Virus record (IMG/VR): IMGVR_UViG_3300005686_000008
Strand: one strand, 5' to 3'
Source of the DNA: a virus
Taxonomy: Duplodnaviria > Caudoviricetes
DNA: 64,000 nucleotides
How positions within the stretch are numbered: position 1 is the stretch's first letter; the number at the start of each line of letters is the position of its first letter. Positions 11,889 to 47,419 of the stretch are shown piece after piece. The position numbers and the translations under genes were made by a program. The notes beneath the pieces are model-generated. The model ran no database searches. It worked only from the letters and a program-made list of their open reading frames with translations, and was not told the DNA's origin.

Positions 11889-13265
11889 ATGAATATGAAG
11901 TTTATCAATACAACGAAGAATACGGTTCAAATAGATGATATTGGTCTTTCTGTGGAATATCAGAATGATACTCCGCAAGAGATAGATACAGAACTTGTAA
12001 AAAAGAGTTTAGCCTTTCAAAAAATGGTATCTATGGGCTGTTTCAGAGTTGTAGAGGTATCTGATGAAAGGATTGAAAAAAACCTATTTAAAGTCAGTCA
12101 AAGGGCCGTTTTTCAAGAACCTATAGTCCCGGAAAGGGGAAAAAGCGGTTCAAAGACAGAAACTATCATAAGAGGTCATTTTTACGACGCCTCCGGGTAT
12201 GCAAAAGTTAACAGAAACCTTGCATTGACATTATATAGAAAAGGAGTTTGTGTTGAAATAGATCCTGTTACCATAAGAGGAAACTGTCTCAACGAAATAG
12301 AGGCCAAGATAATGTCTGTATTCAGGAGACCAGTTGGTAAGGATGCTATTCAGATCGATAGCGTGATTCCAACGCAAGCGAAGCCTTTGGATGGTAATTA
12401 TAACATATTGTATACAACAGCAGAGTCTTCTGGCGTTCCTAATCAGTTTGTAAAAGCAGCAAATCAGTATAACGAGTTATGGGTTACAAGCTCTTTTAGC
12501 GCTCGTTCGTTTATTGATAGCGGTTATAATGGCAAGGTTACAGTTGTTCATCCTGTAGTCAATCCTAATCTATATAACCCTCAAGTACAGTCTTGCGAAT
12601 TTAGACCAGGTCTTCGTTCTTTTTCGTTTCTAAGCGTTCAAACTTGGGGATATAGAAAAGGTTCAGAAGTTCTATTGCGAGCATTTTGCGATGCGTTTAC
12701 GAATAAGGATGACGTATCTCTTGTTCTTCTTATTTCTGAAAGTTCAAGAACGCAACAGTCTAAGATAAAAGAAGAGGTAGGAAAGATTCTTTCTGAATAT
12801 CCTTGTAAGCCTCATATTTTGATATCTCATAAAGGCATTCCTGAATATCAAATGCCATCGTTTTATAAGTCATTCAATGCATTTGTTCTTCCGTCAAGAG
12901 GAGAGGGTTTTGGATTACCATATTGCGAGGCGGCTCTTTGCGGACTTCCTGTTATTGCAACAAAGTATGGCGGAAGTTTAGATTTCTTAGATGAGAATAA
13001 CTCATATCTTGTTGATGTTGATGGGTTTGAAATTGCTGAAAAAGGAAAGACAGGAATTCATTATTGGGATGGACAGAGATTCCCTAAGCTTGGAGGCGAG
13101 TTTATTAGCGGGTTGTCGGACTCTTTGAGATTGGTGGCTTCTGATAAGAATCTGAATAGCAGAAAGGCGGCATTGCTTAGGAGTAAAGTTATTGATATGT
13201 TTAGCGGCGAAAAAACCGGAAAACAGACGAAAGAAATAGTAGACAAGATATGGGAGGCAAGATGA
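11889..13265 (+). CDS. GT4-family (GT-B) glycosyltransferase with an extra N-terminal domain
   Basis: SGYA...R.L, YRKG...LL.AF...F and FVLPSRGEGFGLPYCEAALCGLPVIAT..GG, with the E-x7-E motif intact. Confidence 0.9.
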   Translation: MNMKFINTTKNTVQIDDIGLSVEYQNDTPQEIDTELVKKSLAFQKMVSMGCFRVVEVSDERIEKNLFKVSQRAVFQEPIVPERGKSGSKTETIIRGHFYDASGYAKVNRNLALTLYRKGVCVEIDPVTIRGNCLNEIEAKIMSVFRRPVGKDAIQIDSVIPTQAKPLDGNYNILYTTAESSGVPNQFVKAANQYNELWVTSSFSARSFIDSGYNGKVTVVHPVVNPNLYNPQVQSCEFRPGLRSFSFLSVQTWGYRKGSEVLLRAFCDAFTNKDDVSLVLLISESSRTQQSKIKEEVGKILSEYPCKPHILISHKGIPEYQMPSFYKSFNAFVLPSRGEGFGLPYCEAALCGLPVIATKYGGSLDFLDENNSYLVDVDGFEIAEKGKTGIHYWDGQRFPKLGGEFISGLSDSLRLVASDKNLNSRKAALLRSKVIDMFSGEKTGKQTKEIVDKIWEAR

Positions 13266-13792
13266 TACTCGTTTATATAGATTCAGAAAGCAGAATAGTT
13301 ACGTTGGTTATGGACAAGGTTGTAAAAACATATCCCTTTTCATTCATTAGAGATATTGCTAAAGAAATAGAAGGGAAGGAAGTCGTATATGTTTCAGAAA
13401 CTCTAGCGTCTAGCGGAGATGAAGTTATTGCGTTGGTTGAAGAGTTATTAGAGTCTGATAATGAAGAATCAATACAGAATGGAACGCTTTATCTCCGAGT
13501 AACAACAGCTAGTAAGAATCTTGTTAAACATGGCAACCTATCGTTTTATTTTCAAGGCATGTATGATTTCAAGCCTCTTTCTTCTTTGCCAAGCGATTTT
13601 ACAGAAACATGCAAGGTTGTTTCTGATGGACTCAAAAGCGGTTTGTTTGAAATAGTCAACGAGCAAACCAAGATATATTTAGAGCATCAGAAGCAGCAGC
13701 AACAAGAAGAAAAAGAAGAAAAGATTAGAAGAGCCAAAGAGAGCAGAAATAGGGAAGGCTCTATTGACAATCCTATTCAGATAGAGTTGTAA
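13262..13792 (+). CDS. hypothetical protein
   Basis: ATGA overlap with the GT4 gene and a GGAGG RBS; charged coiled C-terminus. Confidence 0.65.
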   Translation: MILVYIDSESRIVTLVMDKVVKTYPFSFIRDIAKEIEGKEVVYVSETLASSGDEVIALVEELLESDNEESIQNGTLYLRVTTASKNLVKHGNLSFYFQGMYDFKPLSSLPSDFTETCKVVSDGLKSGLFEIVNEQTKIYLEHQKQQQQEEKEEKIRRAKESRNREGSIDNPIQIEL

Positions 13793-13796
13793 ACAT

Positions 13797-14594
13797 ATGA
13801 ATATAGCAATTGTAAACAAAGATAAACCTTGGCTTGTTCTTGCATCAACAAGTCTTATAAAAGGTTTGCAGAAGAAATTTCCAGATGCTTCGATAACTTT
13901 CTTTATTGAACCGGAAAGTCTTCCTGTTTTACTTTTCAATAAGAAAGTTCAAACCATGATTGAACTGTTTTCTGAACAACAGTTTGATTTGGTTATAAAT
14001 ATGACTCCAACTGCGGAGTCTTCTGTTTTTTCTTCATCTATTTGTTCTGGTAATCTAGTTGGATTTATGGAAAAACCCGGAGGAGTTTCTTGTACAACCG
14101 TTGGGGCTGAAGAATATTATAAGGTTTTGTTTGAGAATAATAAAACCGAAAGACACTTGCTTCAAGTTTTGTACAGATTATGCGATATGACATGGAAGGG
14201 CGAAGGCTATGATTTGAGTTATTATCCAAAGAATAGAGCAAAGAAAAACAGTATTGGGGTCGGTATATCTAGCGGAGGATTGAGAGAGTTTGTAAGGAAT
14301 AATTTGGGTAGGACAATGGACAATGTTTATTTGATACCTGATAGAAAGAATCTTTTCAAGAAAATGGATGAAATCAATAGACATATGTATGTTGTTACTG
14401 ATGACCTTTTTACTCTGCACTCTTCAATTGCTCTAAGGAAGGATGTTGAGTTTTTGGATACGGCAGGATTGCCATATAGAATGGAGTTTTTTGGTCGCGG
14501 TAACTATTACGGAATATTTTATGCAGAATGGAAATCCCAAATGCAAAAAGACGAGTGTAAAGAGAATCCGCTCGTCCCCAACTCATCGGGTTGA
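13797..14594 (+). CDS. GT9 (heptosyltransferase)-like protein, apparently degenerate
   Basis: VL.ST.LIKGLQKKFPDASITF and VVTDD.F.LH..IAL.K match the GT9 N- and C-lobes. The usual GD motif reads PW. Confidence 0.6.
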   Translation: MNIAIVNKDKPWLVLASTSLIKGLQKKFPDASITFFIEPESLPVLLFNKKVQTMIELFSEQQFDLVINMTPTAESSVFSSSICSGNLVGFMEKPGGVSCTTVGAEEYYKVLFENNKTERHLLQVLYRLCDMTWKGEGYDLSYYPKNRAKKNSIGVGISSGGLREFVRNNLGRTMDNVYLIPDRKNLFKKMDEINRHMYVVTDDLFTLHSSIALRKDVEFLDTAGLPYRMEFFGRGNYYGIFYAEWKSQMQKDECKENPLVPNSSG

Positions 14595-15351
14595 GTATTC
14601 CTCTTCAATGTTCGGTTTTCAGAAGACGCATGGAGACGGGAAGTTTGTAAGGCTTGCTATTATAGATAGCGGCGTTCCTACTCATGATGATATAAAAACC
14701 GACTTGTTCAAATCTGTAAATTTAACAGAAAGCGGAAGCGTGTATGATGTTTTTGGGCATTCTACCGCTCTTGCTGGTATTATTGCGGCAAATGGGAATA
14801 AGGGAATAAAAGGATTAGCGATAAACACTGATTTGTATTTTGCTAAATCTCTTGCTGATAATGATGGAGATGGGAATTTTGATGCTGTAATAAAAGGAAT
14901 ATTGTGGGCTATAACAAGGGATGTTGATATTATTCTTATGTCGTTTGGTTGTCAGACGGAGCATTCTGGATTAAGGGATGCTATTAAAAAATGTCACAGA
15001 AGCGGTATCTCAATGTTTGCGGCTGGAGGAAACTGTACTAATAGAACAAAAGATGTAGACTTTCCTGCAAGATATGACGAGGTTTTTTCGGTTGGTTACT
15101 CGAATAACATAAGCAGGACAGAGGTTATTATGGCTGATGGTAATGCAAAGGGAATTATCTTGCCATCGCAAGATTTTGAAACAACTTTTGCAGATTCAAA
15201 ATTTGCTGTACTAACAGGAAGTAGTTTATGCGCAGCTGCTGTAGCTGGAATTGGAGTTTTGGCTTTTCAGGATCTTAGACACAAAGGATGCGACATTAAA
15301 AATCCTCAAGTTCTATATAATGAAATTGGAAGATTGGCGGCAAGGGAGTGA
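14521..15351 (+). CDS. S8 subtilisin-like serine protease (start uncertain: 14521 or 14608)
   Basis: AIIDSG (Asp), GHSTALAGII (His), AAGGN (oxyanion Asn) and TGSS.CAAAVAG (Ser). Confidence 0.88.
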   Translation: MQNGNPKCKKTSVKRIRSSPTHRVEYSSSMFGFQKTHGDGKFVRLAIIDSGVPTHDDIKTDLFKSVNLTESGSVYDVFGHSTALAGIIAANGNKGIKGLAINTDLYFAKSLADNDGDGNFDAVIKGILWAITRDVDIILMSFGCQTEHSGLRDAIKKCHRSGISMFAAGGNCTNRTKDVDFPARYDEVFSVGYSNNISRTEVIMADGNAKGIILPSQDFETTFADSKFAVLTGSSLCAAAVAGIGVLAFQDLRHKGCDIKNPQVLYNEIGRLAARE

Positions 15352-15360
15352 ATACTAAGA

Positions 15361-15747
15361 ATGCCTCATGTTCCTCGTAACAAATGTTGCTATCCAGACG
15401 CTGTACAGGTGTCATATACTCCTCTTGACAATAATAGTTGGTCTTCAAGTCCGAGTAGTGTTCAATATGCGCTAGATGATCTTGCTGCCAGAGTTTATGA
15501 TATAGAACTAAATGGAGGAGGCGGAGGAACTGGCAAGTATGCAGAAACCATAACAGGTAATAACATATTGAACCAGTTTAATATAGAACATGGACTTGCA
15601 ACTGAAGATGTTGTAGTTCAAATCTTTGATTCAAATAATCTTCTTGTTTCTTCTCAAGTCGAAATAGTGGATACTAATAATGTTCTTGTAACTTTCTATA
15701 ATCCGCCGGGTAATGGGATTAGTTATAGGGTAGTGGTGGTAGGATAA
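15361..15747 (+). CDS. small virion structural/fibre-associated protein
   Basis: VQ.ALD.L helix and a C-terminal I.H.L.T.DVVVQ.FD....V...V...D.NNV.VTF beta domain, common in phage fibres. Confidence 0.6.
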   Translation: MPHVPRNKCCYPDAVQVSYTPLDNNSWSSSPSSVQYALDDLAARVYDIELNGGGGGTGKYAETITGNNILNQFNIEHGLATEDVVVQIFDSNNLLVSSQVEIVDTNNVLVTFYNPPGNGISYRVVVVG

Positions 15748-17790
15748 ATGGGTTATCAATTTCTAACTCCGATTCTTTTTGGCGAAAATCTCGTCCAAGT
15801 TGCCTATGGAACAGGAAGTCCAGAGGGGGTTGTTACAGCTCCCGTTGGAAGCGTATATCTTCGTTCTGATGCCTCTGGCTCATCGGACGCTTTGTGGGTA
15901 AAAGGAAGCGGAACTGGTAATACTGGTTGGTCTCAAATTACGGCTGGCGTTGGAGCGTCCGGTTATTCAGGTTATTCAGGATATTCAGGCTTTAGTGGCT
16001 ATTCAGGATTTTCAGGATATAGCGGTTCTGGCTTTAGCGGTTACTCTGGTTATGGAACTTCTGGTTTCTCCGGTTATTCAGGAAGCGTTACAGATGCAAC
16101 GTTTGTTCCTCTTGGAACTCCTACCGATGGATTCTGGACTGACGGACTTAATCCTTGGACTGTTTCGACAACCGTTGCTGATGCATTAGATGATTGTAAT
16201 GAACTTTTTAGTTATCTTGCTCCTGCAAATGCATCTGATTTGTCTGGTAATCTTACAATGGCAAACACAACATTGTATACTGGATATGTTTCAAATGGAA
16301 ATACAAACTATAAAACTGGACTAGGAGCTGGATCTCAATATACGACAATTATTAATGACCCAACATTCACGCTAACAAGTCCAAGTACGTCAACAGCTTT
16401 CAATAAAGCAGATGAAGGTTATACTCGTTGGTATATTGCTGTTGGAACTGGATCTTATGGCGCTGCAACTGATGAAGTTAATCATGCGACAAATTTCGTT
16501 GAAGGAAGTAGAGCAGGAACTCAGGGTACGACTCCTTGGACTGATGGACAGCTTTCTGTTACTTCTGTTGCATGGTATAACTCTTTCCCGAAATGGCAAA
16601 AAGGAAACGCTGTTATAACTATTACGGCTGCTCAGTTGTCTCAGGGATATAATAAGATGAAGATGACCAGAGAGGGAAGCTTTACAACTCAGTCGTCAAA
16701 TGATTATGAGGTTTTCTACGACAATGATGCAGGCGCTAATCCATCTGTTTCTGGAACTCCAACAGCGGTAGAAGGGGCAACTGTTAATACGAGATATCTT
16801 TCTGGAGTTAAGTTTTATGATAGAGGAACAACGTTCAAAGTTGGTTGCGTTGGACTAGATTGTTTTGATAATGTTTATGTTCTCAATCCTCTTGTAATTA
16901 CTTCATCGAATAGCAATTCTATGGGGAACGCTTCTATTCCCTGGAATGACGCCACGGTAACAGGAGTTTCTGCTATTCCTGTTATTGGAGAGACAATGAC
17001 TGTTACTGATAAGGTAATAACAGTACCATCTAGTAACGTTAGAAGCACGAACGCTCGTGTTACTATAACACCATCCGATCCTTACGGGTCATATTCTGCG
17101 GTATCTTCTGCTTCGGAAAATAGATTGATTGATGGTTATTTGAATAATGCATCAGGAACATCCACTGATACAGCAGAATATTTTGATGATGAATGGTATA
17201 GGATGTTATCAAACTTTAATACTCTAAGCACTACCTATTCTTCTGGAGGAACAGGAGGTTGGGACTCTTCAGTGTCGTTAGTATCTGGAACGACTGGATA
17301 TGATGGTTTGCAATGCTTTAATGGAGGATTAAAGTATCCAGTTACTAACTATACAAGTGGATATTTACCATCAACGGGTCAGGTTAATTATTCTTCTGCA
17401 TCAGGAAATAGGGTCTATATTAGATATTTTTATGTTGGAGCAGGAATTCAGAACTTAGTATTTACATTAGCGAATCAGTCCGGAACAACAAGTTTTGTTT
17501 CAGTAGCGACTGGTCCAAGTTCTAATAATCTAACTCTAGAAATGCTTGCTCCTGCAACAACCGTGGATGGGTCTTCTGTTGTTGAATGGAAAGATTGTTA
17601 TGTTGATTACACAATAGATACGGACATAGGATGTTATGTTAGCGGAACAAAATCTTCATCAACAAGTAACTGGGCTTGTACTTTAGGAACAAAATCAACA
17701 TCAACTAGCGGAAATGTTATTGCTATTAGGATTACAGCGGCGGCAGCTTGGACTGGGGTTTTGGAGACAATATCGGTATCAGGATCATAA
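15748..17790 (+). CDS. Ser/Thr/Gly-rich fibre-like structural protein with (SGY/F)n repeats
   Basis: GTGSPEGVVTAPVGS.YLR.D....LWVK.SGTGNTGW fibre motif, an SGYSGFSG tract and beta-rich S/T domains. Confidence 0.7.
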   Translation: MGYQFLTPILFGENLVQVAYGTGSPEGVVTAPVGSVYLRSDASGSSDALWVKGSGTGNTGWSQITAGVGASGYSGYSGYSGFSGYSGFSGYSGSGFSGYSGYGTSGFSGYSGSVTDATFVPLGTPTDGFWTDGLNPWTVSTTVADALDDCNELFSYLAPANASDLSGNLTMANTTLYTGYVSNGNTNYKTGLGAGSQYTTIINDPTFTLTSPSTSTAFNKADEGYTRWYIAVGTGSYGAATDEVNHATNFVEGSRAGTQGTTPWTDGQLSVTSVAWYNSFPKWQKGNAVITITAAQLSQGYNKMKMTREGSFTTQSSNDYEVFYDNDAGANPSVSGTPTAVEGATVNTRYLSGVKFYDRGTTFKVGCVGLDCFDNVYVLNPLVITSSNSNSMGNASIPWNDATVTGVSAIPVIGETMTVTDKVITVPSSNVRSTNARVTITPSDPYGSYSAVSSASENRLIDGYLNNASGTSTDTAEYFDDEWYRMLSNFNTLSTTYSSGGTGGWDSSVSLVSGTTGYDGLQCFNGGLKYPVTNYTSGYLPSTGQVNYSSASGNRVYIRYFYVGAGIQNLVFTLANQSGTTSFVSVATGPSSNNLTLEMLAPATTVDGSSVVEWKDCYVDYTIDTDIGCYVSGTKSSSTSNWACTLGTKSTSTSGNVIAIRITAAAAWTGVLETISVSGS

Positions 17791-17799
17791 AGGTAATTC

Positions 17800-20001
17800 A
17801 TGTCTTTTTCAGTTGAATCATTAACTCAGGCGGCATTTAAGAAACTCTTCGGTTTAGCTCATACCGAAGTCAAGGGCTATCCGCTTGGGAATGAAGGTAT
17901 TGCAAGCCAAATTACTATTGTGGCTTCTGATGTTTATGTTGATACTATTCCGGCGACAGCGGGAGCTGTTGCAAACGTTATTGTTGCTTGTACAAATGCT
18001 ACAAACGGTCAAACTGATAGTTATTTGACTGTTTCTCAAAATCTTTCTGTTGCTCCAGATGGTTCTGGAGAGGGTCACGCTTATCTTGTAACGGTTCCTG
18101 CTGGACACGGTTTGATTGGAGAAATTAATCCACTTACTGGTGTTGCATATGCAGAGGGTAGCGTTGTTATGTCCATAATTCCAAAGAAGTTTGGAACGAC
18201 ATGGCGACCAATATTGTATGATTCTGGAAAAGTAGAAATTCCTCCGCTTTCAAGTCTTGATTGGATTCTTGATGAGAGAGGTATTATTGTTATACGAGAC
18301 AATTCTACAGCGCCTGCATACCTTGGATGTTATGTTTATATTGGAGATACGTTGGCTGATACTGCTGGCGTTTCTGGTTATTCAGGTTATTCATCAGCTT
18401 CCGGTTTTAGCGGCTATTCATCAACTTCAGGCTTCTCTGGATATTCATCGACTTCAGGTTTTTCAGGATATTCTGGTTCAGGCTTCAGCGGTTATTCAGG
18501 ATATGGACAGTCTGGATTTAGTGGATATTCTGGTTATGGAACATCGGGCTTTTCTGGTTATTCAGGACCGGCAGGCATAGGAACTCAAGGAGATTCAGGG
18601 TTTTCGGGCTATTCTGGCCTCAGCGGTTTCTCTGGTTATTCTGGCCGTTCAGGTTTTAGCGGATATTCTGGTGCAGGTTTCGTTTGGCAAGGTACTTGGT
18701 CTTCAATGGGGGCTTATGTAACAAACGATGTTGTTTCTTATAATGGAAGTTCTTATATATGTATTTCATCTTTGGACACTTGGCCGGCAGATCCACCTGA
18801 TATTGATGCTTTACATTGGAGCTTAATGTCTTCTTCTGGATATTCTGGTTATTCTGGCAGATCTGGCTTTTCTGGTTATTCAGGCTTTAGTGGATATTCT
18901 GGCTTTTCTGGTTTCTCAGGATATTCAGGCTTCTCTGGATATTCCGGCTTTAGCGGCTTCTCAGGTTATTCATCAACGTCAGGTTTTAGTGGATATTCTG
19001 GCTTTTCAGGCTATTCTTCAACATCTGGCTTTAGCGGATATAGCGGCTTTAGTGGTTTCTCTGGATATTCAGGGCGTTCTGGATTTAGCGGATATTCAGG
19101 TTTTAGCGGCTTCTCAGGTTATCGAGGAGTTTTTGGTGGAGACAGTCAGCCTCAGTGGTTTGATACAGGAACAACAGCGACGGACCCTGGCGCTCCTTAT
19201 GTAGCGTTTAATAATGCTACATATTCTTCTGTAACTGAGATATATATAAGTAATACAAATTCAGATGGGGCTAACACTGATCCGTGGCTTGGGTTTCTTG
19301 GCGATTCTACAAATCCTGTTAAAGGAATTTTAAGAGTTGTTTCTAGAAATAATTCTGCCAATTTTGCAATATTTAGCGTTGCAAGTGTTTTAAATAATAC
19401 AGACTGGTTTACTATAGGAGTTAGTTATATAATTCATAATAATGCTTTTTCTGCGTCTGAAGAAGTAATTGTTACTTTTGCTCATGCAGGAGATTCTGGT
19501 TTCTCAGGATATAGCGGCTTTAGTGGATATTCAGGACGTTCCGGTTTCTCGGGATATTCAGGATTTAGTGGTTATTCTGCATTTTCCGGTTATTCCAGCT
19601 TTAGCGGTTATTCTGGATTCTCAGGATATTCAGGAGCAGGTTCAACAAAGCTTGTATCAGCAGTTCTTTCAACTGCTGGCGATGTTGCTTTTGTTACTTC
19701 TCCTGTTACTGGAACTATTACGGCTTCTTATATTACAGGACATTCTGCAACCGGCGCAGCAACTGCTGGATCTGCGGTTGTTGATGTATGGAAAGATACA
19801 AACGCAAATTATCCGCCAACAGTAGCGGATACTATAACCGCATCTGCTAAACCAACAATAAGTTCTGCTAACAAGTCTGTAGATACAACTCTTACAGGAT
19901 GGACAACTGCGGTGACTGCTGGCGATTGGTTGGTGTTTAAATTAGATTCGATATCAACAGTAGCATATGTTATATGCTCTTTGAAAATAACAATACCTTA
20001 A
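17800..20001 (+). CDS. fibre protein with three (S-G-Y/F)n tracts and a CBM5/12-like module
   Basis: Gly-every-third tracts at about 18373-18670, 18835-19120 and 19495-19635. WQGTW....Y..NDVVSYNGSSYIC......PP.....W resembles a small carbohydrate-binding module. Confidence 0.72.
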   Translation: MSFSVESLTQAAFKKLFGLAHTEVKGYPLGNEGIASQITIVASDVYVDTIPATAGAVANVIVACTNATNGQTDSYLTVSQNLSVAPDGSGEGHAYLVTVPAGHGLIGEINPLTGVAYAEGSVVMSIIPKKFGTTWRPILYDSGKVEIPPLSSLDWILDERGIIVIRDNSTAPAYLGCYVYIGDTLADTAGVSGYSGYSSASGFSGYSSTSGFSGYSSTSGFSGYSGSGFSGYSGYGQSGFSGYSGYGTSGFSGYSGPAGIGTQGDSGFSGYSGLSGFSGYSGRSGFSGYSGAGFVWQGTWSSMGAYVTNDVVSYNGSSYICISSLDTWPADPPDIDALHWSLMSSSGYSGYSGRSGFSGYSGFSGYSGFSGFSGYSGFSGYSGFSGFSGYSSTSGFSGYSGFSGYSSTSGFSGYSGFSGFSGYSGRSGFSGYSGFSGFSGYRGVFGGDSQPQWFDTGTTATDPGAPYVAFNNATYSSVTEIYISNTNSDGANTDPWLGFLGDSTNPVKGILRVVSRNNSANFAIFSVASVLNNTDWFTIGVSYIIHNNAFSASEEVIVTFAHAGDSGFSGYSGFSGYSGRSGFSGYSGFSGYSAFSGYSSFSGYSGFSGYSGAGSTKLVSAVLSTAGDVAFVTSPVTGTITASYITGHSATGAATAGSAVVDVWKDTNANYPPTVADTITASAKPTISSANKSVDTTLTGWTTAVTAGDWLVFKLDSISTVAYVICSLKITIP

Positions 20002-20020
20002 AACATAAAGGAGAATAGGT

Positions 20021-21405: not shown

Positions 21406-21546
21406 TATTCAAAATTACAAGATAATTTTCCTGTATTTAACTGAATTTGAAATGTACTCTCCATCCATTTGTAGAGAGGATTATCATAGTGTTTTTTTGT
21501 AGATAATTGATAGTTTTACTAAAATAATGTAAAGGATGTCTGTAGT

Positions 21547-38163: not shown

Positions 38164-38214
38164 TTACAATATAGTGTATGGTCCTATTTTAAAGATAATA
38201 TAGGAGATTAAATA

Positions 38215-38871: not shown

Positions 38872-38888
38872 CATAAGGAGAGTGTTTT

Positions 38889-39086: not shown

Positions 39087-39133
39087 CCATATTTTTTTTG
39101 TAGTTTATGGTATAACATTTTGGAGTTTAGCAA

Positions 39134-41044
39134 ATGGCATTAATCACAGATCCTGACAACTTAAATGATCACGCAAGTAATAATACAGCAACAGAAGTTT
39201 TTATAGATACTTCTGGAAAGACAATAAAACTAAATCAAACAGGTAATCTTTCTACGGATGGGGTTACTCTTAAGTGTTTATATTCATTCTTGAAAGAAGA
39301 GTGGAGAGATGATACTAATAGCAAGAATCTTGCAGCATTCCCGTTTCCAATGACCCCTATTACTGATGAATCTTTTGAGTTTATTGAAGGATGGGATTTT
39401 GATTCGGATTCAAGTAGGTATCTTATTAGAACGGCAGGATGGACAGTTAAGAATACCTCAGGAAATACCACTCAAAAATGGGCAGGAATTATAGGTCTTG
39501 GTACAATTGAGTCAGACGATCAATTGTATTTTCAGCAATCAAGCGGTGGTTCCGCAGTAAACGTTCAACTTACAGGACAGGTGAATCAGGCCGTTCAAAT
39601 CTTAAGAGATGATGATGGTGATGCTAACTATGCAGAAGGTTCTGATTATGACAGAAGAACTGTTTTTAATCTTTTCTGTCGTGAATATAATCAGTTATAT
39701 GGAAAGTCAAGCTTAAGCGATATCGGTGTTACTACAATGGACTCTATTGCTTATCGCTTTCCTATATCTACGGGTACTGACCTTAAAATCACTGATGATG
39801 ATACTGCCGTAGGTGCTGATTCTCCGTATACCGAAATTCTTGTTAGATATTTTGATCAAGCCTTTACAAGAGATGTTGATTCTTCAACTGATAGAAACTT
39901 TGGCATTGTTGTTGATGTTGGAACTCATTCTGGTGTTGATGGATCGTGTTCTTCTGGCGGAACCGTGTTTACAACTTCAGAAGGCGGTATAAATACTTCT
40001 GGAAATCCTTATGCAGGAGGAACATTAACTATACATGAAGGAGCTAATGCTGGAACTTATACAATATCAGGAAATCCAACAGCAACTCAAGTAACTATCA
40101 CTGGAGGAACTTTTGCAGGTACAGTTTCCAATCAAAGCTTTACCTTGCAAAGAGGAACTCCTATTGTTGCTACAGCGGAAGAAATTTATACAAAAGTTCA
40201 ATATCTTCTAAGACAGAATTCTGATATTGATACAACAGATCAGTCTGTAACAGGAAAGACTGCTGATGCTCTTATGAGATTCGTTGGTGATACGCTCGTT
40301 TGTGGAAATCCATCTCCAACAAATCCAAACTCAGGTGGTTCAGGTGTTATTATTGAAGGATTTAGTTCAAGTGATACTAACAGAATCCAGTTTTATGATA
40401 ATACTGGAACTCAAAGAACGTTCCCATATGTTGCTGTTCTTACAATAAACTTTGGAGACAACTTGAGATTGGATGCAAGTGCTAAATATTGGATATATTT
40501 CACATATACCCATCAGGCTACTAATACTGGATTTGCTATAACAAGCGCTTCTGCTCAAACAGCTACGCTTACAAGCTCAACAACGGATCTTTCTCAGATA
40601 CTTGATAATGAAGAATTTTATATTAGCGGGTTTGCTACAACTGCTAATAATGGACTATATAGGGCTACCGCCGGGGGATCAAGCGGTTCGGTTGCTGTTG
40701 AAAAAGCCGATACTGGAGATTCTAACTTTACAAACGAATCAGCAGGTGCTAGCGTAACTATTCAGTTTAATCCGTTTGGTAGTGCTAGTGCTGTAATAGT
40801 TGATAATAATGCTGGAGCAGATATGACAGCTAGCGTTTCTAGTCAATCTAGCGTTCAATTGTCATTCAATTATGATGGAAATGTTCAAGGTGGTAGAACG
40901 GCAGCTGTTGATGCTGCTATAACGGCAGTTGGTATTGGTTTGAATACAGGTCAGTATGTTAAGGCAACAGGAACTATAGCCCGTTCTACCGCAAATAGCG
41001 TTTCTCTAGTTGCTCCTCTTGAACGTAACTATGCTAATGCATAA
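39134..41044 (+). CDS. virion structural protein (S/T-rich)
   Basis: 636 aa. N-terminal GVTL..LYSFLKEEW....L..F.FPM..I.....E...GW; C-terminal ERNY.N. Confidence 0.62.
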   Translation: MALITDPDNLNDHASNNTATEVFIDTSGKTIKLNQTGNLSTDGVTLKCLYSFLKEEWRDDTNSKNLAAFPFPMTPITDESFEFIEGWDFDSDSSRYLIRTAGWTVKNTSGNTTQKWAGIIGLGTIESDDQLYFQQSSGGSAVNVQLTGQVNQAVQILRDDDGDANYAEGSDYDRRTVFNLFCREYNQLYGKSSLSDIGVTTMDSIAYRFPISTGTDLKITDDDTAVGADSPYTEILVRYFDQAFTRDVDSSTDRNFGIVVDVGTHSGVDGSCSSGGTVFTTSEGGINTSGNPYAGGTLTIHEGANAGTYTISGNPTATQVTITGGTFAGTVSNQSFTLQRGTPIVATAEEIYTKVQYLLRQNSDIDTTDQSVTGKTADALMRFVGDTLVCGNPSPTNPNSGGSGVIIEGFSSSDTNRIQFYDNTGTQRTFPYVAVLTINFGDNLRLDASAKYWIYFTYTHQATNTGFAITSASAQTATLTSSTTDLSQILDNEEFYISGFATTANNGLYRATAGGSSGSVAVEKADTGDSNFTNESAGASVTIQFNPFGSASAVIVDNNAGADMTASVSSQSSVQLSFNYDGNVQGGRTAAVDAAITAVGIGLNTGQYVKATGTIARSTANSVSLVAPLERNYANA

Positions 41045-41076
41045 TAGCATAATATTTTTTTGGACGATAGTAAAAT

Positions 41077-44000
41077 ATGGCAGCAATAGTCGCAAACGTT
41101 AGTAACAATGTTGACGTTCTTGATAGTAACGCATTTATGGCGGTAATTACTGGTTCAAGAACGAGAACTACGTCTATTGACGGCGTAACGTGGTCAACTG
41201 GTACGAACGCTCTCTCTGCGGCAAACTCTTGGAATGCTGTTTGTTGTGGAGACCCCGCTGGAAATGGAAATTCCGTTGCTGTTGCTGTTGCAGCAAGCAC
41301 TAGAGTCCTTAATTATAGTTATGATTGCGCTACTTGGACGGCAAATGCAACAGGCATGCCTTCGACTGCTGTTTGGACTTCTTTGGTTTTTGGCGAAGGT
41401 AAATTTGTTGCTGTTTCAACAACATCTTCAACTGCTGCTGCTTATTCAACGGATGGTATAACTTTTACAGCTGCAACTTTACCATCTTCTGCAAACTGGT
41501 TATCTGTTGCTTATGATTCTGTAAATGGTAATTTTGCCGCTGTTTCTGGCGGTACTTCAACTGCGGCGGCATATTCAACGGATGGAACTTCTTGGAGTGC
41601 CGCAACTTTACCGTCCTCTGGTGATTGGAGATGCGTCGCGGCTGGAGGAGGAACTCTTGTTGCTTTGCGATACAATTCAACAGCAGGAGCTTATTCAACG
41701 GATGGAGGAGCTAACTGGACTGCTTGTAATACTTTGCCTGTAACAGGAAACTGGACTTCTATAGCTTATGGAAATGGGGTTTTTGTTGCAGTTGCAACTG
41801 GTGGTACTGTTGCTCTAACTTCTACTGATGGAATAGATTGGACTCAAAGAGTTTTGCCGGTTTCTGGTAACTGGTCTTCTATTTCTTATTCAACAAGTCT
41901 TAAACTTTTTGGCGCAATAACAAATGCAACAACGAACGGTCTTGCAACATCGCCTGACGGAATTGATTGGACAGGTGGAACCCTAACTTCTGCTGCTTAT
42001 ACATCTGTTTGCGAAACTCCAATAAAGTGGAACTCAGGCGATACCTTGACCATTAATAATGGCGCAATTATAACAGTTGATACAGACCAGACTAAATTTT
42101 GGAAAACAATAACGATTAATAATGGTAAATTGTTGATTACAAATAGTTCTACTTCAACTCCAATACAGTTTGCTATGGGTCGCAATACTGGTGCTACTGT
42201 TAATTCAATAGTTCCTGCAAGTGGTCTTGGAACTGTTGAGGTAACTGGCAATTGGATTGAAATAGATACAGGAGATGGAACTTCAAATCAAACAATGACA
42301 CTTCCTTATAGAAACCATTGTCCTTGTATTTGGGTTGAAACGGGAAGCGGAACTGGAATTTATGAGATTTGGAACAATGTAACAGGATCTTACTCTGGTG
42401 TTACCCCTCTTATTAGAGATGGTATTTCTGGAGTTAGTTCGGGAGTTAGGGGTAATTTCTTTACTCAAGACGCAGATTCAACCGTTTATGGAACGAGCGT
42501 TGTTAATTATGGACCTCTTTCTGTTACTGGTGGTTCTTCTACAGTTTCCAAGTATGTTACTGTTACATCAACGTCTGGAATTATAGAAGGCGCTGCAATA
42601 TCTGGAACAGGAATTGCAGCTAACTCGGTTGTGGATGCGGTTATTTCGGCAACAGTCTTGAGGCTTAATCTGGTTACTACAGCCTCTGCTGGTCCTAATA
42701 CATATACTGTCTATAATCCTTATAAATCTCAATTAACTTCAACCATAAGGTTCGGCGATGGAACAAATGGTAATGTAGTTCCTAATGGAGCAAAAGTTAG
42801 GGTTCCAAATATTGTTATTGACGACTTGACTCCTGCAAGCTTGCAGACTTCTTCTTTAGTCTTAAGCGCAAATATATTGCTTACATCTGGTGGAAACATA
42901 ACTGTTGATAAAGCTATTTTTTCCGAGTCATATAACAACTTTACTCAGTCTAAGATTTGCTCTTTGAAGAATTGCGGTTTTTCGATTATTCCGCTTATCT
43001 CAGAAACATATAATCTTCTTATTGAATCTGTTGGCATGGGTTTGCATCCTGATAGATTGTTTTTTGGTTCTTCTGCATGGCAAACAAGAAGAGGTAGATT
43101 TGGTACTAATGCTCTTTGGAGTTATATATCAAATGCATCTGTAACAGATTTGAAGATTGTTGTTTCTAATCCGCAAGCTCTTGCTGCTGCTGCTGCTGTA
43201 ACGGGTATTCTTGGTTTGTCATTCACGCAAGATGCAATATTTGATAAACTAAGATTATTTTGTTTGCATCCAACAAAAACTTCTTCATTTGGGCTTTATT
43301 TGCTTGATTCTGTTTTTGATTGTTCTTTTTCTAATATAGATATTCATGGTTGCGCGCCATATAACTTAATTAGATCTAATAATAATACATTTACAAATAC
43401 GTCAACGTCTCAAAGTATGTTTTATGGTAGAACAATATATGTTGCTGGCGCTAGATATGGATACGATCCTAATCTGGGTGATAAAATGCTTGATGATACG
43501 AAGTATTATTTCAAGCAAAGAAGCTACAGGGACTGGTCTGATTTAACAAGTTATCAAGAAAGTAGATTGTATTCTGTTACTCCTTATTTGGGAGATGATA
43601 AATTTCATCCATTCAACTTCGGTGTTGTAAATACAGCTTCAGGTACAAATGTCTTAACATGGACACAAAGAGCTCCCTCTGCTGCGACAGTTGTTTATGA
43701 AATATACCGAGGAACTTCTGCTGGATTTACTACAAGAGATGCTACAACTAGATTATATCAAAACGGAACAGCAGCAACTGTAACAGCAACAGACAATGGT
43801 TCTCTTTTGCTTTCTGCTCCTTCTAATGGAACTACATATTATTATGTTCTTAGAAAATATAATGTTAGAATTGCAGGAGGCACCGGATCCGGCTCTGGAG
43901 GCTCGACAACAGTAACAACGTCAGGCAACTTTAACGCTGTTGCAACGATAACAAACTGTAAAGGAAAATCTGGAAAGAATATAATTCTAGCTATAGGATC

Positions 44001-46431
44001 TAACTTTGACACAGTAGGTATTGTTGCTGGCATGCCTGTTTCTGGAACTGGAGTTCCTGCAAATACTACCGTTTCAAGTGTTGATTCTTATTATCAAATT
44101 ACTCTCAATAATAATCTAACGCAAGATATACTTGGTGTTACTCTTACTTTTGGTCTTGTTGCAGGAATGTATGTTTTTGGAACAAATATAGGTCAAAATG
44201 CTCAAATACAATCTGTTGATTCAAATACATCAATGACTGTTACTGTTGCTAATGCTGGAACAATTTCTGGAACTTTGAATTTTGCTTCGGGAACAGAGTC
44301 AGCCGAACAGTCTTGCTATACTCATGGTGCTGCAACAACTGTAACTAATTTACTTTTGAATACAGATGACTTTAGTAGTGCTTCTTGGACAAAAACAACA
44401 ACAACAGTTACTACAAACGTTGATATACCTCCAACTCAGATTTATTTTTCTACAGCAGCAATAACAGGCACAGCAGACCGATTGGCTGCTACAGGTAATA
44501 ACGCAACAACGACTCAATCAATAACAACAGTCGTTAGCACTCAGTATACTTTTTCAGTTTACATAAGATCTGATATTGCTACTCCTCAAAACGCAACAGC
44601 TGGAAGCATTAGCTTTGGAACTGCAACTCAAGCTTTTACAGCAAGCTTGCAATGGCAAAGAGTTTCTGTAACATTTACAGCAACAGGTGTTTCAACAACG
44701 GCAACAATAACAATTAACACAACAGGACAAAATATAATTGTTGGATCTGCTATGGTAAATACCGGAGCAACTGCCGCTCCTTATGTTGCCTCTGCTGGTT
44801 CTGCAACAACTGCTGGTGCTACGGAAATTTCAGCTTTACTTGCTTGGTCAAAAGCAAATTCTGGAGAAGCAGAAAATCAAGGTGTTGCTATAACAGTGTC
44901 TGCTCAAGGTGTATTATGGGAAATGTACATGAGTACAAATTCTGGATTTACTCCAAGCTCTTCAAATAGAACATTAGCAAACTTTGGTGCTACAACTGCA
45001 ATGCATATTTTGGCAAATAGTAATGGTAATGTTTTTGATACATTTGAAGAAATTGGAGGAGGCATAACTGCTGCGGTTATTTCTCTTACAACTTCCTCAA
45101 ATAATAGATTTTTGAACTATGATATAGGGCTTGATTATGGAAATGCGGCTACGGGATATATTACTACTATATCAAATCTTTGTAATAACAATTTCCTTCA
45201 TAACTGGGATATAAGAAATCCAGTTAATGCTGTTGCTGCAATTTATCCTTTTGGAGGAACTTCGGGTACTACGAATAACAACTCAGGCTTGATTTTGCAA
45301 AATATAAAAATGAATGCATATAGTCTTCCTTTGAATAATAACTATCTTGGAGTTATTTGCAAAGGGGTTAGCGGTGCTTCTTTTTCGCCTCTTTCAGGAT
45401 CTGCAACAACTGCGGTTATAACATCAACAACTGATGGTTTGGCAAATGGATATACAACGATATATGATACAATCTTTAATGAGCTTTATCAAGGAGCGAG
45501 TAATGGAGCTTTGGCTTTGACTTTTAATGCTTCCGCTCTTGATACTCCTCCTTATACTTTGAGCGGAGCATCTTTCTCTAATGCAGGACGTTTGTATTTC
45601 AAAAATTCTGGAGATTATGCCGAATATATATGGCCTCATAAAATATATGGAGTAACAGGTTTTCGTAGTTTAATGTATAAAGTAAACGTAAATGATTGCG
45701 GCAATGATGCAACAACGGGTTATGGTATTAAAATTGAATATGCCATAAATACTGGATCTGGATATGGATCTTATAAAGAGGCCACACCAGAAAATCTTGT
45801 TGCAGAAACTTTACCAGATGCTGATGTCGGTTTTTATCTTAAAATTAAGTTAACAGCAACAACGTTTATGAAATATACTTCGTTCACCTCAAGATTTGTT
45901 ATTGGCGAAACTATTAACGGAGCTACTTCTGGAGCGACCGCTGTTATTGACGACGAAGAAGCTGGAGCTTCTGGTATAGGCGGGACTCTTAGATTATCAA
46001 GTGTTACAGGAACATTCATTCCTGGAGAGGTTATAAGGAGTGGCGTTACAAATAGGGCAACAAATTCTGCAACTAACGGTTTTGCTCTTGGTCCAAGTTT
46101 TACAAGCTATATAGATGGTTTGATAATATTTACAACTGTTGATAAAACAGCTTTATATCCAGAGGAAACTCCAACTATTACGTTGACAGGATTGAGATCT
46201 GGATCAAAAATAACATTTGTAAAAATTTCAGATGGATCTTCTTTGGGTGGAACGTCTAGTAGCGGAACGTCTTTTTCTTTGACATATGATTATTATGCAA
46301 ATGTCGATGTAAATATAGTTATTCAGAACTATGGATATTTACATTTAACCATTCCTTATACATTGACAAATGAATCCGTTTCAATTCCAGTGCAGCAAGT
46401 TATTGATAGGAATTATCTTAACCCGGTTTAA
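41077..46431 (+). CDS. large fibre/spike protein: N-terminal beta-propeller, beta-helix and carbohydrate-binding-like domains
   Basis: About 7 repeats of W.S.A.G.G.FVAV.......YSTDG..W...TLP. TNLL..TDDF....W...YTFSVY.R...WQR.S.TFT is a CBM4/9-like pattern. Very T/S/N-rich; ends DRNY.NP. Confidence 0.72.
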   Translation: MAAIVANVSNNVDVLDSNAFMAVITGSRTRTTSIDGVTWSTGTNALSAANSWNAVCCGDPAGNGNSVAVAVAASTRVLNYSYDCATWTANATGMPSTAVWTSLVFGEGKFVAVSTTSSTAAAYSTDGITFTAATLPSSANWLSVAYDSVNGNFAAVSGGTSTAAAYSTDGTSWSAATLPSSGDWRCVAAGGGTLVALRYNSTAGAYSTDGGANWTACNTLPVTGNWTSIAYGNGVFVAVATGGTVALTSTDGIDWTQRVLPVSGNWSSISYSTSLKLFGAITNATTNGLATSPDGIDWTGGTLTSAAYTSVCETPIKWNSGDTLTINNGAIITVDTDQTKFWKTITINNGKLLITNSSTSTPIQFAMGRNTGATVNSIVPASGLGTVEVTGNWIEIDTGDGTSNQTMTLPYRNHCPCIWVETGSGTGIYEIWNNVTGSYSGVTPLIRDGISGVSSGVRGNFFTQDADSTVYGTSVVNYGPLSVTGGSSTVSKYVTVTSTSGIIEGAAISGTGIAANSVVDAVISATVLRLNLVTTASAGPNTYTVYNPYKSQLTSTIRFGDGTNGNVVPNGAKVRVPNIVIDDLTPASLQTSSLVLSANILLTSGGNITVDKAIFSESYNNFTQSKICSLKNCGFSIIPLISETYNLLIESVGMGLHPDRLFFGSSAWQTRRGRFGTNALWSYISNASVTDLKIVVSNPQALAAAAAVTGILGLSFTQDAIFDKLRLFCLHPTKTSSFGLYLLDSVFDCSFSNIDIHGCAPYNLIRSNNNTFTNTSTSQSMFYGRTIYVAGARYGYDPNLGDKMLDDTKYYFKQRSYRDWSDLTSYQESRLYSVTPYLGDDKFHPFNFGVVNTASGTNVLTWTQRAPSAATVVYEIYRGTSAGFTTRDATTRLYQNGTAATVTATDNGSLLLSAPSNGTTYYYVLRKYNVRIAGGTGSGSGGSTTVTTSGNFNAVATITNCKGKSGKNIILAIGSNFDTVGIVAGMPVSGTGVPANTTVSSVDSYYQITLNNNLTQDILGVTLTFGLVAGMYVFGTNIGQNAQIQSVDSNTSMTVTVANAGTISGTLNFASGTESAEQSCYTHGAATTVTNLLLNTDDFSSASWTKTTTTVTTNVDIPPTQIYFSTAAITGTADRLAATGNNATTTQSITTVVSTQYTFSVYIRSDIATPQNATAGSISFGTATQAFTASLQWQRVSVTFTATGVSTTATITINTTGQNIIVGSAMVNTGATAAPYVASAGSATTAGATEISALLAWSKANSGEAENQGVAITVSAQGVLWEMYMSTNSGFTPSSSNRTLANFGATTAMHILANSNGNVFDTFEEIGGGITAAVISLTTSSNNRFLNYDIGLDYGNAATGYITTISNLCNNNFLHNWDIRNPVNAVAAIYPFGGTSGTTNNNSGLILQNIKMNAYSLPLNNNYLGVICKGVSGASFSPLSGSATTAVITSTTDGLANGYTTIYDTIFNELYQGASNGALALTFNASALDTPPYTLSGASFSNAGRLYFKNSGDYAEYIWPHKIYGVTGFRSLMYKVNVNDCGNDATTGYGIKIEYAINTGSGYGSYKEATPENLVAETLPDADVGFYLKIKLTATTFMKYTSFTSRFVIGETINGATSGATAVIDDEEAGASGIGGTLRLSSVTGTFIPGEVIRSGVTNRATNSATNGFALGPSFTSYIDGLIIFTTVDKTALYPEETPTITLTGLRSGSKITFVKISDGSSLGGTSSSGTSFSLTYDYYANVDVNIVIQNYGYLHLTIPYTLTNESVSIPVQQVIDRNYLNPV

Positions 46432-46445
46432 CGTAGTGAGATTTT

Positions 46446-46892
46446 ATGGGATATTCGTTTGATGGTTCTCAAAAAATTATTACACTAACGTCAGGAACAA
46501 CAACACTGGACGTTAAGGATTTGTATTCCAGATGGAAAGACTGGGTTTTATTAAGTGATAATAGTAAATGGGATCTTGCTTTTTTGGTTTCCGGTGGAGA
46601 TACTATTGATCCGGGGGCTGGAACAGCTGTTCCTTTATATGCATTTTTGGCAAATGGATGGAGAATAAAGCCTCAAGAATCAAATCATACTCTAAATGTT
46701 ACAAACGGAGTTCTTCTTGTTGATGGAGGTGGGGATCCTTTTGTTGATACAACTGGTAGCTATATAGTTCGTATAAATTATCAACAACCAGTTCAAGCTA
46801 TTACTGTTGCAACAGGAGGTTTGACTGGTCAACAATCTCAAGATTTGTCTGCTATTAAAAGAATGACAGATCTAATCCCTGGAGCTTTGTAA
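46446..46892 (+). CDS. structural protein related to the N-terminus of 39134
   Basis: FDG..K.I.L.....LDV.DLYSRWKDW...GGD...Y.FL.NGWRI.P.E. Confidence 0.6.
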   Translation: MGYSFDGSQKIITLTSGTTTLDVKDLYSRWKDWVLLSDNSKWDLAFLVSGGDTIDPGAGTAVPLYAFLANGWRIKPQESNHTLNVTNGVLLVDGGGDPFVDTTGSYIVRINYQQPVQAITVATGGLTGQQSQDLSAIKRMTDLIPGAL

Positions 46893-46894
46893 TT

Positions 46895-47419
46895 ATGGCG
46901 TACACTCTTGATATATCCTTAGCTTTGGGTTCAAGTAAGGCTGGTATAACATTAAATGCTCAACTTGTTGATTCTTCTTTATCTGTTGTTGGTGGCAGTG
47001 TGTCTACGGGTTTTAGTGAAGTTGGCAATGGTTATTATCTTTGGCATTATGAGGGTTTTCCAGATAATTTTAGAGGTGGCGTTAAATTCTATGAACAAGG
47101 GTCTCCGAATAGTATTTTGACTTTTGTTTCTATAAATCCTCAAGAGACTGAAAATGCAGATGTTAAAGTTTCTGAAGTGTGTTCTGGTGGAACATCTGGA
47201 TCTGTTAGTGTAAATGTTGGACATTCTAGTGTTGTTGTTCAAAATTCCACAGAAACAAGTGTTGGTAATAATAGAACAATAGAAATTACAAAAGGTTCTG
47301 AAACTGTTGGTTCTAATGTTGTTTTTGGTGAAAATAAAGAGGTTTTACCTTCAGAAACAATCAATATAATTACAGGGTCTCAAGGTTCTTCTGTTAGGAT
47401 TACTCCTGGAGTTAGGTAA
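46895..47419 (+). CDS. structural adaptor protein (paralogue of 24665-25657)
   Basis: Shared L.AQ....GF.EVG.G.Y.W.Y..FPDNFRGGVKFY domain. Confidence 0.6.
   Translation: MAYTLDISLALGSSKAGITLNAQLVDSSLSVVGGSVSTGFSEVGNGYYLWHYEGFPDNFRGGVKFYEQGSPNSILTFVSINPQETENADVKVSEVCSGGTSGSVSVNVGHSSVVVQNSTETSVGNNRTIEITKGSETVGSNVVFGENKEVLPSETINIITGSQGSSVRITPGVR

Follow-up and report, generated by a model that had tools for sequence, protein, structure and literature searches.

The region between the major capsid protein gene and the head-to-tail adaptor gene of a large uncultured tailed phage holds two blocks of fibre genes, A and B, separated by a 12.4-kb island of genes for nucleotide-sugar synthesis and glycosyltransferases (GTs). 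We analysed this region in a 64,000-nucleotide stretch (the window) of IMG/VR virus record IMGVR_UViG_3300005686_000008 (Duplodnaviria; Caudoviricetes). The enzyme set of the island, the core of which is a GT2 gene followed by a half-GT9 gene (hereafter the cassette), is linked in phage genomes to fibre proteins that carry proline-free (Gly-Tyr/Phe-Ser)n tracts. The window is part of a 370,652-bp phage contig, estimated to be 73% complete, the stated origin of which is bioreactor sludge; the only DNA runs with a full match, four from such sludge, may be the source sample, and no RNA run is listed as a match. The features that bear on the island and its surroundings are as follows.

9811-10707, + strand: major capsid protein, left edge of the hypervariable region (phrog_2522 major head protein, E 1.9e-60)
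10748-10779 and 11848-11872, + strand: two strong terminator-like hairpins, stems of 14 bp and 11 bp, with T tracts
15361-15747, + strand: small block A protein; its C terminus matches phrog_8309, phrog_16122 and phrog_2647 (phage virion/decoration proteins)
15748-17790, + strand: fibre protein with a (Gly-Tyr/Phe-Ser)n tract at about residues 56-112, candidate glycan acceptor (Ser+Thr 26.5%)
17800-20001, + strand: fibre protein with four long (Gly-Tyr/Phe-Ser)n tracts (about residues 190-293, 345-445 and 564-612), main candidate acceptor
20021-24645, + strand: rest of block A (proteins of 102, 359 and 1032 amino acids (aa)), without repeat tracts; placed by composition, no family matches
24665-25657, + strand: 330-aa protein with two immunoglobulin (Ig)-like sandwiches and C-terminal helices (model predicted local distance difference test score (pLDDT) 66, generic Ig matches)
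25715-33199, + strand: 2494-aa putative assembly-line enzyme with five GT2, three GT17 and three methyltransferase domains (Pfam, PDB sequence matches, internal repeats)
33196-34155, + strand: RmlB, dTDP-glucose 4,6-dehydratase (TIGR01181, 439.5 bits, cut-off 365.1)
34157-34987, + strand: predicted NRS/ER-type bifunctional 3,5-epimerase/4-reductase, nearer to NRS/ER than to bacterial RmlD
34984-35918, + strand: dead-end copy of the rmlA N terminus, then a free-standing LAGLIDADG homing endonuclease
35909-36634, + strand: short (241 aa) RmlA-type sugar-1-phosphate nucleotidyltransferase (Pfam NTP_transferase, 178.9 bits)
36635-37660, + strand: GT2, cassette core (Pfam, 48.7 bits); adjoins a homologue of the gene at 37651 in 23/23 loci
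37651-38136, + strand: 161-aa half-GT9, one Rossmann-like lobe, cassette marker (ESM Atlas score 0.98)
38215-46892, + strand: block B (218, 636, 1784 and 148 aa), without repeat tracts; placed by composition
46895-47419, + strand: 174-aa protein with the same N-terminal domain as 24665-25657 (84 aa aligned at 42% identity)
47423-48718, + strand: head-to-tail adaptor, right edge of the hypervariable region, with two N-terminal Ig/macroglobulin-like domains

The capsid protein is 50% identical to gp27 of Bacillus phage G and has at least 80 relatives in IMG/VR at 61-87% identity, many of them on contigs of 250-550 kb; these matches mark it as a phage-G-like megaphage belonging to an uncultured clade. 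Downstream of its own capsid gene, phage G has nothing resembling the studied region, and a DNA search with window positions 9-33 kb against cultured phages gave no match. At the opposite edge, a model of the adaptor protein built from an alignment of 19 family members (pLDDT 77) places two Ig/macroglobulin-like domains in the first 200 residues, as seen by structure comparison, and aligns residues 211-431 with the adaptor chains in ten or more solved structures of phage necks or portal-tail assemblies (among them 8jov_G, 9nwi_A, 9gb5_I, 7z47_A and 9ums_E; VIA Z 8.8-11.1). A BFVD match is named 'Head-to-tail adaptor', and a homologue occurs in 17 of 21 relatives. The protein has no sequence match among cultured phages, and Foldseek searches of the PDB with the models of 47423-48718 and 24665-25657 returned generic Ig-like matches only, the adaptor fold being visible only with exhaustive VIA comparison. 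By predicted fold, then, 47423-48718 is a head-to-tail adaptor, a match that does not itself prove a position in the virion. The 'neck gene' of a first-pass annotation of this DNA is thus real, and the genes that it named all lie on the + strand where it placed them, between capsid and adaptor. Consensus matching found no terminator-like hairpin of comparable strength between 11872 and beyond 48.8 kb, so that the same-strand block at 11.9-48.7 kb, which contains a GT4 gene, the fibres, the island and the adaptor gene, could form one late transcription unit.

The largest gene of the island encodes a soluble enzyme of eleven domains. From its N terminus these are three GT2 domains (residues 5-700), two GT17 domains (705-1230), FkbM and TylF-like methyltransferases (1247-1621), a further GT2 (1643-1860), a methyltransferase (about 1880-1960), a third GT17 (1980-2260) and a GT2 resembling SpsA and chondroitin synthase (2264-2452). 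Because its GT2 modules are 54-63% identical to each other, the protein seems to have grown in part by recent internal duplication. Related clusters of 1400-3000 aa number at least 80 in metagenomes. The enzyme sits inside the terminator-free, same-strand structural block.

Three genes follow that would supply the sugar. The product of 34157-34987 matches the plant NRS/ER structure 4qqr (1.3e-44) and Mimivirus L780 (7jid, 1.5e-30) far better than bacterial RmlD (3sc6, only 3.3e-8). That of 35909-36634 is best matched among NCBIfam models by rmlA (TIGR01207; 232 bits against a cut-off of 360) and rmlA_long (215 bits), both below their cut-offs. RmlC (PF00908) is absent from the 73%-complete contig in a search that was positive in 11 of 14 control genomes. 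By family assignment, RmlA, RmlB and the NRS/ER-type enzyme are a three-enzyme hybrid route to nucleoside diphosphate (NDP)-L-rhamnose, the nucleotide being dTDP or UDP, and the earlier claim that the phage makes its own nucleotide sugar is supported by what is, on these assignments, a complete encoded pathway. The first 20 or so residues of RmlA are encoded twice (34984-36019), as a dead-end copy coupled to the end of the NRS/ER gene and as the live copy after the LAGLIDADG gene at 35085-35918; in relative G005 the NRS/ER-rmlA junction is uninterrupted.

The island ends with the core pair of the cassette. The half-GT9 protein falls below the cut-off of the GT9 profile (E 0.0035), and its ESM Atlas template-modelling (TM) scores to GT9-annotated clusters are 0.80-0.90, a range shared with the GT9-like protein at 13797-14594. 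Fused GT2-GT9 proteins of 654 aa exist in viral clusters, which makes the earlier wording, a GT2 with a split GT9, apt. In relative G003 (L102, about 9056-11161) an interruption of about 1.1 kb falls between residues 97 and 97 of the GT2 homologue, which may reflect an intron or homing-endonuclease insertion. A Kyte-Doolittle scan found no convincing transmembrane segment in the island proteins, and no Pfam family for a flippase, a membrane GT or a polyprenol step matched there, in agreement with the first reading of the locus.

Blocks A (15361-24645) and B (38215-46892) differ from these enzymes in composition, with 22-28% Ser+Thr and 3-5% Lys+Glu compared with 10-14% and 13-17%. Among open reading frames (ORFs) of at least 200 aa on the gene strand of the 370-kb contig, only the seven in these blocks have this fibre composition. 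The fibres had been called very Ser/Thr-rich; the enrichment is there, but the phrase somewhat overstates a composition typical of phage fibres. The 1032-aa, 636-aa and 1784-aa proteins gave nothing informative against Pfam, PHROGs and PDB sequences, and the 1032-aa fibre, used as the query in a related-locus search, returned no relative. Both blocks are extra fibres encoded to the head side of the adaptor, and gene order alone suggests their attachment at the head or neck. An 84-aa N-terminal Ig-like domain occurs twice (24665-24916 and 46895-47146), starting the genes that end blocks A and B; the two copies flank the island together with block B and resemble the scar of an insertion by recombination. 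In distant relatives the C-terminal part of the 24665-25657 protein directly precedes the adaptor gene.

Two block A proteins stand apart by their repeats. That encoded at 17800-20001 matches Pfam Collagen at 82.1 bits (cut-off 27.2) and also has a CBM5/12-like motif. Glycine recurs at every third residue, with 58 triplets in runs of at least eight, and of all triplets 78% have Tyr or Phe at position X and 90% have Ser at position Y. Collagen-like triple-helix proteins typically have proline or hydroxyproline (Hyp)-rich X and Y positions; this repeat has 0% Pro.

To relate the island to the fibres, we rebuilt the capsid-to-adaptor interval in 20 family members, where it is hypervariable and spans 5-41 kb. 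Fibre-like ORFs occur in 12 of the 20 intervals, a homologue of the giant 2494-aa enzyme in four, the GT2 and half-GT9 pair in five and rhamnose genes in two. Inside the family, the island and fibre-like ORFs in general are not associated (2/2/10/6, Fisher p = 1.0). Relatives L108 and G014 have the giant enzyme without a fibre-like ORF in the interval, and G004 has no island, yet it keeps block B at 82-94% identity, joined directly to a homologue of 24665-25657. Block B, present there at 68-94% identity without the island, is probably independent of it. The proposed tie between the island and the fibres at large therefore fails: the island is sporadic, and a relative keeps block B without it.

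A much sharper association emerged for the repeat proteins. We compared 13 cassette-bearing contexts, namely five family members and eight unrelated contigs reached through giant-enzyme homologues 38-58% identical. Runs of G-(Y/F/I)-S triplets are present in ten of the 13 (this phage, G005, G003, G014, L105, L106, L107, L110, L137 and L138) and in none of 15 cassette-free family members (Fisher p = 2e-5, conservatively 1e-4). Over whole records, a strict five-triplet DNA pattern has 12 matches in this phage, all within 15748-17790 and 17800-20001, and one in G005; it has none in eight complete cassette-free relatives of 138-548 kb. G004 is a natural control in which cassette and repeats are both absent, with block B and a related block A kept, including the 1032-aa protein at 65% identity. 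A 118-aa module of the 17800-20001 protein (residues 448-565) was found, among the loci compared, only in this phage, G005, L106 and L005, all of which have the GT2 and half-GT9.

The linkage was then tested in both directions. In the forward test, 23 IMG/VR loci with a half-GT9 homologue all have the GT2 alongside, and repeats lie within 10 kb in nine of 11 dereplicated groups, as against 0 of 77 cassette-free major capsid protein loci. In the reverse test, which started from the repeat DNA pattern alone, the pair lies within a few kilobases in eight of 80 contigs. Over records, this test covered 21, since 29 of the 50 repeat-bearing loci lay outside searchable records; the half-GT9 is present in six of the 21, and in three of the four complete ones. 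Among 50,697 cultured phage records only one has a half-GT9 homologue, Methylophilaceae phage P19250A (38.7 kb); two genes upstream of its GT2 and half-GT9 it encodes a 1202-aa protein, more than 800 aa of which are G-(Y/F/I)-S repeats. In L138, where the cassette lies among DNA-metabolism genes, a repeat-bearing 596-aa protein follows directly.

The P19250A repeat protein (L131, 21390-24995; Gly 26%, Ser+Thr 27%) is annotated as a tail length tape-measure protein; from its composition and repeats it is probably a collagen-like fibre instead. The interval of G008 (L125-L127) contains a different flavour of repeat, with 248 Gly-Ser-Ser triplets, and no cassette. The G-Y/F-S repeat DNA pattern occurs in many contigs binned as giant-virus metagenome-assembled genomes (L141, L165, L174, L207, L210 and others), with up to 309 triplets per locus.

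The genomic linkage of cassette and repeats, the identities of the genes and the absence of membrane parts are observations. The explanation towards which we lean, with slightly better than even confidence, is that the island is a soluble phage-encoded protein-glycosylation system acting preferentially on the proline-free (Gly-Tyr/Phe-Ser)n tracts in fibre proteins of the virion. Within the window, we infer, the acceptor repeats are those of the block A proteins at 15748-17790 and 17800-20001. RmlA, RmlB and the NRS/ER-type enzyme would make NDP-L-rhamnose in the infected cell. The GT2 and half-GT9, the universal core of the cassette, would probably start or recognise glycosylation of the repeat, in the cytoplasm and O-linked, with the Ser of each triplet as the likeliest attachment site and Tyr also possible. 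The 11-domain enzyme, accessory and highly variable and, like the rhamnose pathway, an optional addition to that core, would extend this to a complex, partly O-methylated glycan; the enzyme families suggest a content of rhamnose and O-methyl groups. The sugar would stabilise or solubilise a proline-free triple helix with an aromatic residue in every triplet, and would also present a variable glycan surface. Under this explanation the repeats, rather than block B, are the acceptor of the cassette, which is why G004, lacking the repeats, also lacks the cassette and yet has block B. What survives of the earlier proposal of a self-made glycan coat on the fibres is accordingly its narrower part, a cassette linked to (Gly-Tyr/Phe-Ser)n proteins, found here in block A only; the link to fibres generally does not hold.

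A broader version can be put forward only tentatively and is, on balance, doubtful. It would be a widespread phage system in which the GT2 and half-GT9 O-glycosylate every triplet, the sugar replacing hydroxyproline as what keeps a viral collagen-like helix together, and in which giant enzymes and the rhamnose pathway write strain-specific methylated coats.

Several observations weigh against repeat glycosylation by the cassette. The run in G014 is minimal, at nine triplets only, and L108 and L136 have the cassette without G-Y/F-S repeats in the DNA examined. L109 has the cassette with conventional collagen-like repeats instead, beside two 2-oxoglutarate (2OG)-Fe(II) oxygenases (prolyl-hydroxylase-like) and a giant GT. 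From the side of the repeats, 72 of the 80 repeat-bearing contigs have no cassette in the short stretch around the repeats, 15 of the 21 repeat-bearing records, mostly fragments, lack the half-GT9, and the giant-virus contigs show no homologue of the phage cassette in the stretches around their repeats. Because the cassette-free comparison draws on a single phage family, the counts lack phylogenetic independence. Co-occurrence gives no direction, that is, which partner acts on which, and the GT2 and half-GT9 do not resemble any characterised protein O-glycosyltransferase.

Four other explanations were weighed. That a general glycan coat covers all the Ser/Thr-rich fibres of blocks A and B, as a fibril-like layer on the head or neck, we regard as unlikely. 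In its favour, the island has a block on either side, the two blocks are alike in their fibre composition, capsid and adaptor genes bound the region, and further GT genes are interleaved with presumed tail genes; in addition, fibre-like ORFs lie within 10 kb of a giant GT in 6-7 of nine unrelated contexts, as against about 27% of random 26-kb windows of this phage's own genome. These points are offset by the null association within the family, by G004, which has block B at 82-94% identity without the island, and by the giant GT of L108 and G014 in intervals without a fibre-like ORF: the association is sharp for G-Y/F-S repeat proteins only.

Host-envelope remodelling, in which the enzymes would extend or alter a host surface polysaccharide during infection and so block superinfection or the sticking of progeny to debris, seems quite unlikely. 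Enzymes that combine several GT2 and methyltransferase domains recall the bacterial synthases of O-antigen and S-layer glycans. The island occurs in only some relatives, and the sporadic, polymorphic NDP-sugar and GT clusters of jumbo phages have been read in just this way (Iyer et al. 2021; PMC7824862). The island, however, includes no membrane-anchored GT, flippase, ABC transporter or ligase and no transmembrane segment, and it lies inside the structural-gene block, not among early genes. Nor does host-envelope remodelling predict that the cassette tracks a phage protein type across unrelated phages, including one of 38.7 kb.

The cassette and the repeat proteins might instead cooperate without the repeats being the acceptor, the glycan being placed on another virion protein or made as a free polymer that the fibres bind, or the pair acting as a non-catalytic chaperone. 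Co-occurrence without direction leaves room for this, the half-GT9 is a single lobe of a GT-B fold, and the 17800-20001 protein has its CBM5/12-like motif. We nevertheless consider it improbable: the GT2 keeps a full catalytic-domain match, fused GT2-GT9 forms are known, the Ser in each triplet is an obvious acceptor, and glycosylated collagen-like proteins are a known kind.

As for glycosylation of modified bases of the phage genome, no DNA glycan known to us would call for eight GT domains, three methyltransferases and a rhamnose pathway. Such DNA hypermodification is most improbable: there are phage GTs that attach diverse glycans to DNA (Pyle et al. 2024, as cited in PMC12619734), and in L138 the neighbours of a giant-enzyme homologue are genes for topoisomerase, dNMP kinase and DNA methylase, but in L138 too a repeat protein directly follows the cassette, and the position is structural in eight of ten contexts.

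Further GT genes and their neighbours lie upstream of block A and beyond the adaptor gene, where the tail tube gene is also found.

11889-13265, + strand: GT4 glycosyltransferase (Pfam Glyco_trans_1_4, 53 bits, and Glycos_transf_1, 50 bits, both above cut-off; phrog_2170)
13250-13792, + strand: 180-aa protein between the GT4 and GT9-like genes, conserved, present in 14 major capsid protein loci; no match in Pfam, PHROG or NCBIfam
13797-14594, + strand: GT9-like (GT-B fold) protein (ESM Atlas feature score 0.95, TM 0.80 to GT9 clusters)
14443-15351, + strand: S8 subtilisin-like protease (Pfam Peptidase_S8, 87.9 bits)
59118-60281, + strand: marginal GT4-like gene, two genes before the tail tube gene, 59-69% conserved in four relatives
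60894-61952, + strand: tail tube protein with a C-terminal tail rich in Ser/Thr/Asn/Pro (Pfam Phage_tube_2, 51.7 bits)

Of 20 relatives, 18 have the GT4 gene after the capsid gene; the S8 protease, which the first-pass annotation had passed over, accompanies it in 15, including phages without interval fibres. Because these genes persist even where the interval has no fibres, we treat this module apart from the island; as its distribution suggests, the GT4/GT9-like/S8 module must be a separate part, conserved across the family and serving some conserved target. The label 'GT9-like' for 13797-14594 is a lead rather than proof, in that the ESM Atlas groups the protein with GT9 clusters but no Pfam family matches it. 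Similarly, a gene does stand at 59118-60281 where an extra GT4 among the head-tail genes had been reported, but its GT4 match is marginal, at 25.4 bits in one scan and 26.4 bits in another with a Pfam cut-off of 26.4.

Beyond the tube gene run about 58 kb of giant same-strand ORFs, and from this position and ORF size we presume a separate tail module; a PHROG scan of this module, downstream of the window, gave almost no matches. It includes a GT4 of the same PHROG as 11889-13265 (window-equivalent 78.5-79.7 kb; L134:7672-8796), and a GT2-GT4-GT2 trio (window-equivalent 122.7-125.3 kb; L132:2074-4624) directly follows the last giant ORF and precedes an exonuclease gene. Homologues of some further GT genes occur in close relatives. 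Because such genes are interleaved with structural genes and some recur in close relatives, this clade may glycosylate parts of its virions quite generally, the island then being one variable layer.

Three other genes in the window deserve mention. The 1991-aa protein encoded at 3059-9034 matches the head maturation protease PHROG in its first 190 residues only, the remainder being conserved in the family. The PhoH gene at 49470-51353 is interrupted by an intein-like insert, which spans about 318 aa (roughly residues 72-389), contains a LAGLIDADG_3 domain and is absent from the homologues in four close relatives. At 55357-56400, directly before a Mu gp36-like neck gene, lies an actin-fold protein (Pfam Volactin, 211 bits) that is 81-85% conserved in four relatives.

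Phage GTs are usually read as DNA-modifying or host-serotype-converting, and to our knowledge glycosylation of virion proteins is documented only in a few actinophages. If the tracts are glycosylated as proposed, a recognisable type of fibre in phages from 38 kb to more than 370 kb would be a glycoprotein, and the variability of its glycan would matter for recognising hosts, for sticking to matrices such as sludge flocs or mucus and for escape from antibodies or lectins. The proline-free repeat would join the collagen-like structures that are stabilised by sugar as a new case, and glyco-engineering would find in the 11-domain enzymes compact, soluble assembly lines for glycans. The annotation of the P19250A protein as a tape measure would be corrected, and this cultured phage offers a direct experimental handle. 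Virion glycosylation and glycosylated collagen-like surface proteins are known kinds. In the searchable literature, outside which most subscription journals lie, we found no account of this cassette, in P19250A or elsewhere, or of phage GTs linked to collagen-like repeats such as G-Y/F-S, no 11-domain GT/methyltransferase or GT17 in phages and no phage NRS/ER-type rhamnose synthase.

The nearest phage precedent is in mycobacteriophages, where soluble phage GTs are reported to modify structural proteins of the virion in the cytoplasm, with glycans at the C termini of capsid and tail tube subunits (Freeman et al. 2023, as cited in PMC12619734). The two systems share phage-encoded soluble GTs with genes in or near structural modules, and in this phage such GTs do lie within structural modules. 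By its capsid protein the phage falls, at 23-25% identity, into one broad family with cluster C mycobacteriophages. Here, the last 25 or so residues of the tube protein form a tail rich in Ser, Thr, Asn, Gly and Pro, and the capsid protein tail is short. Unlike in the mycobacteriophages, the signal here, which comes from genes alone, points to internal collagen-like tracts of fibre proteins, and the enzymes are a GT2 with a half-GT9, an 11-domain enzyme and an NDP-rhamnose pathway of the phage's own.

A closer parallel for the substrate is BclA of the Bacillus anthracis exosporium, in which Thr residues of the Gly-Pro-Thr repeats carry rhamnose-containing, O-methylated oligosaccharides, forming a hair-like nap, with the rhamnose operon adjacent. 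Both have collagen-like Gly-X-Y triplets with a hydroxy amino acid at Y and rhamnose genes near the structural gene. The differences are that the phage triplet is Gly-Tyr/Phe-Ser, with no proline, that NRS/ER stands in place of the RmlC and RmlD of the RmlABCD set, and that BclA is a cellular spore protein. The physical rationale for sugar on a proline-free repeat is given by the cuticle collagen of Riftia pachyptila, a hydroxyproline-poor triple helix stabilised by galactosylated Thr at position Y. That is an animal extracellular protein to which galactose is added in the secretory pathway, whereas the phage triple helix is itself a prediction.

Among very large phages, the sporadic, polymorphic sets of nucleotide-sugar enzymes and several GT families in jumbo cyanophage clusters are similar in kind (PMC7824862). 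Those are read as modifiers of the host outer polysaccharide, unlike the present island, which has no membrane parts and tracks a structural protein type. Fusion of several transferases in a soluble viral polypeptide has parallels in chlorovirus PBCV-1, where the fused activities of A064R include rhamnosyltransferases and a methyltransferase. PBCV-1 A111/114R likewise combines several transferase activities in one soluble polypeptide for the capsid-protein glycan (PMC7826918). Three domains are fused there as against eleven here, and the chlorovirus glycans are N-linked on the capsid protein.

Giant viruses combine their own nucleotide-sugar synthesis with GTs, in clade-specific, variable gene sets (Megavirinae: PMC10117803; review PMC9614988). 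The phage shares with their fibril glycosylation the pairing of sugar synthesis and GTs, and its epimerase-reductase is of the type of the Mimivirus L780 UDP-L-rhamnose synthase. It differs in its bacterial host, its tailed virion and its GT families, and its dehydratase and nucleotidyltransferase are of the bacterial RmlB and RmlA types, which makes the pathway a hybrid. By analogy, a widespread system that glycosylates every triplet and writes strain-specific methylated coats would be the bacterial-virus counterpart of giant-virus fibril glycosylation.

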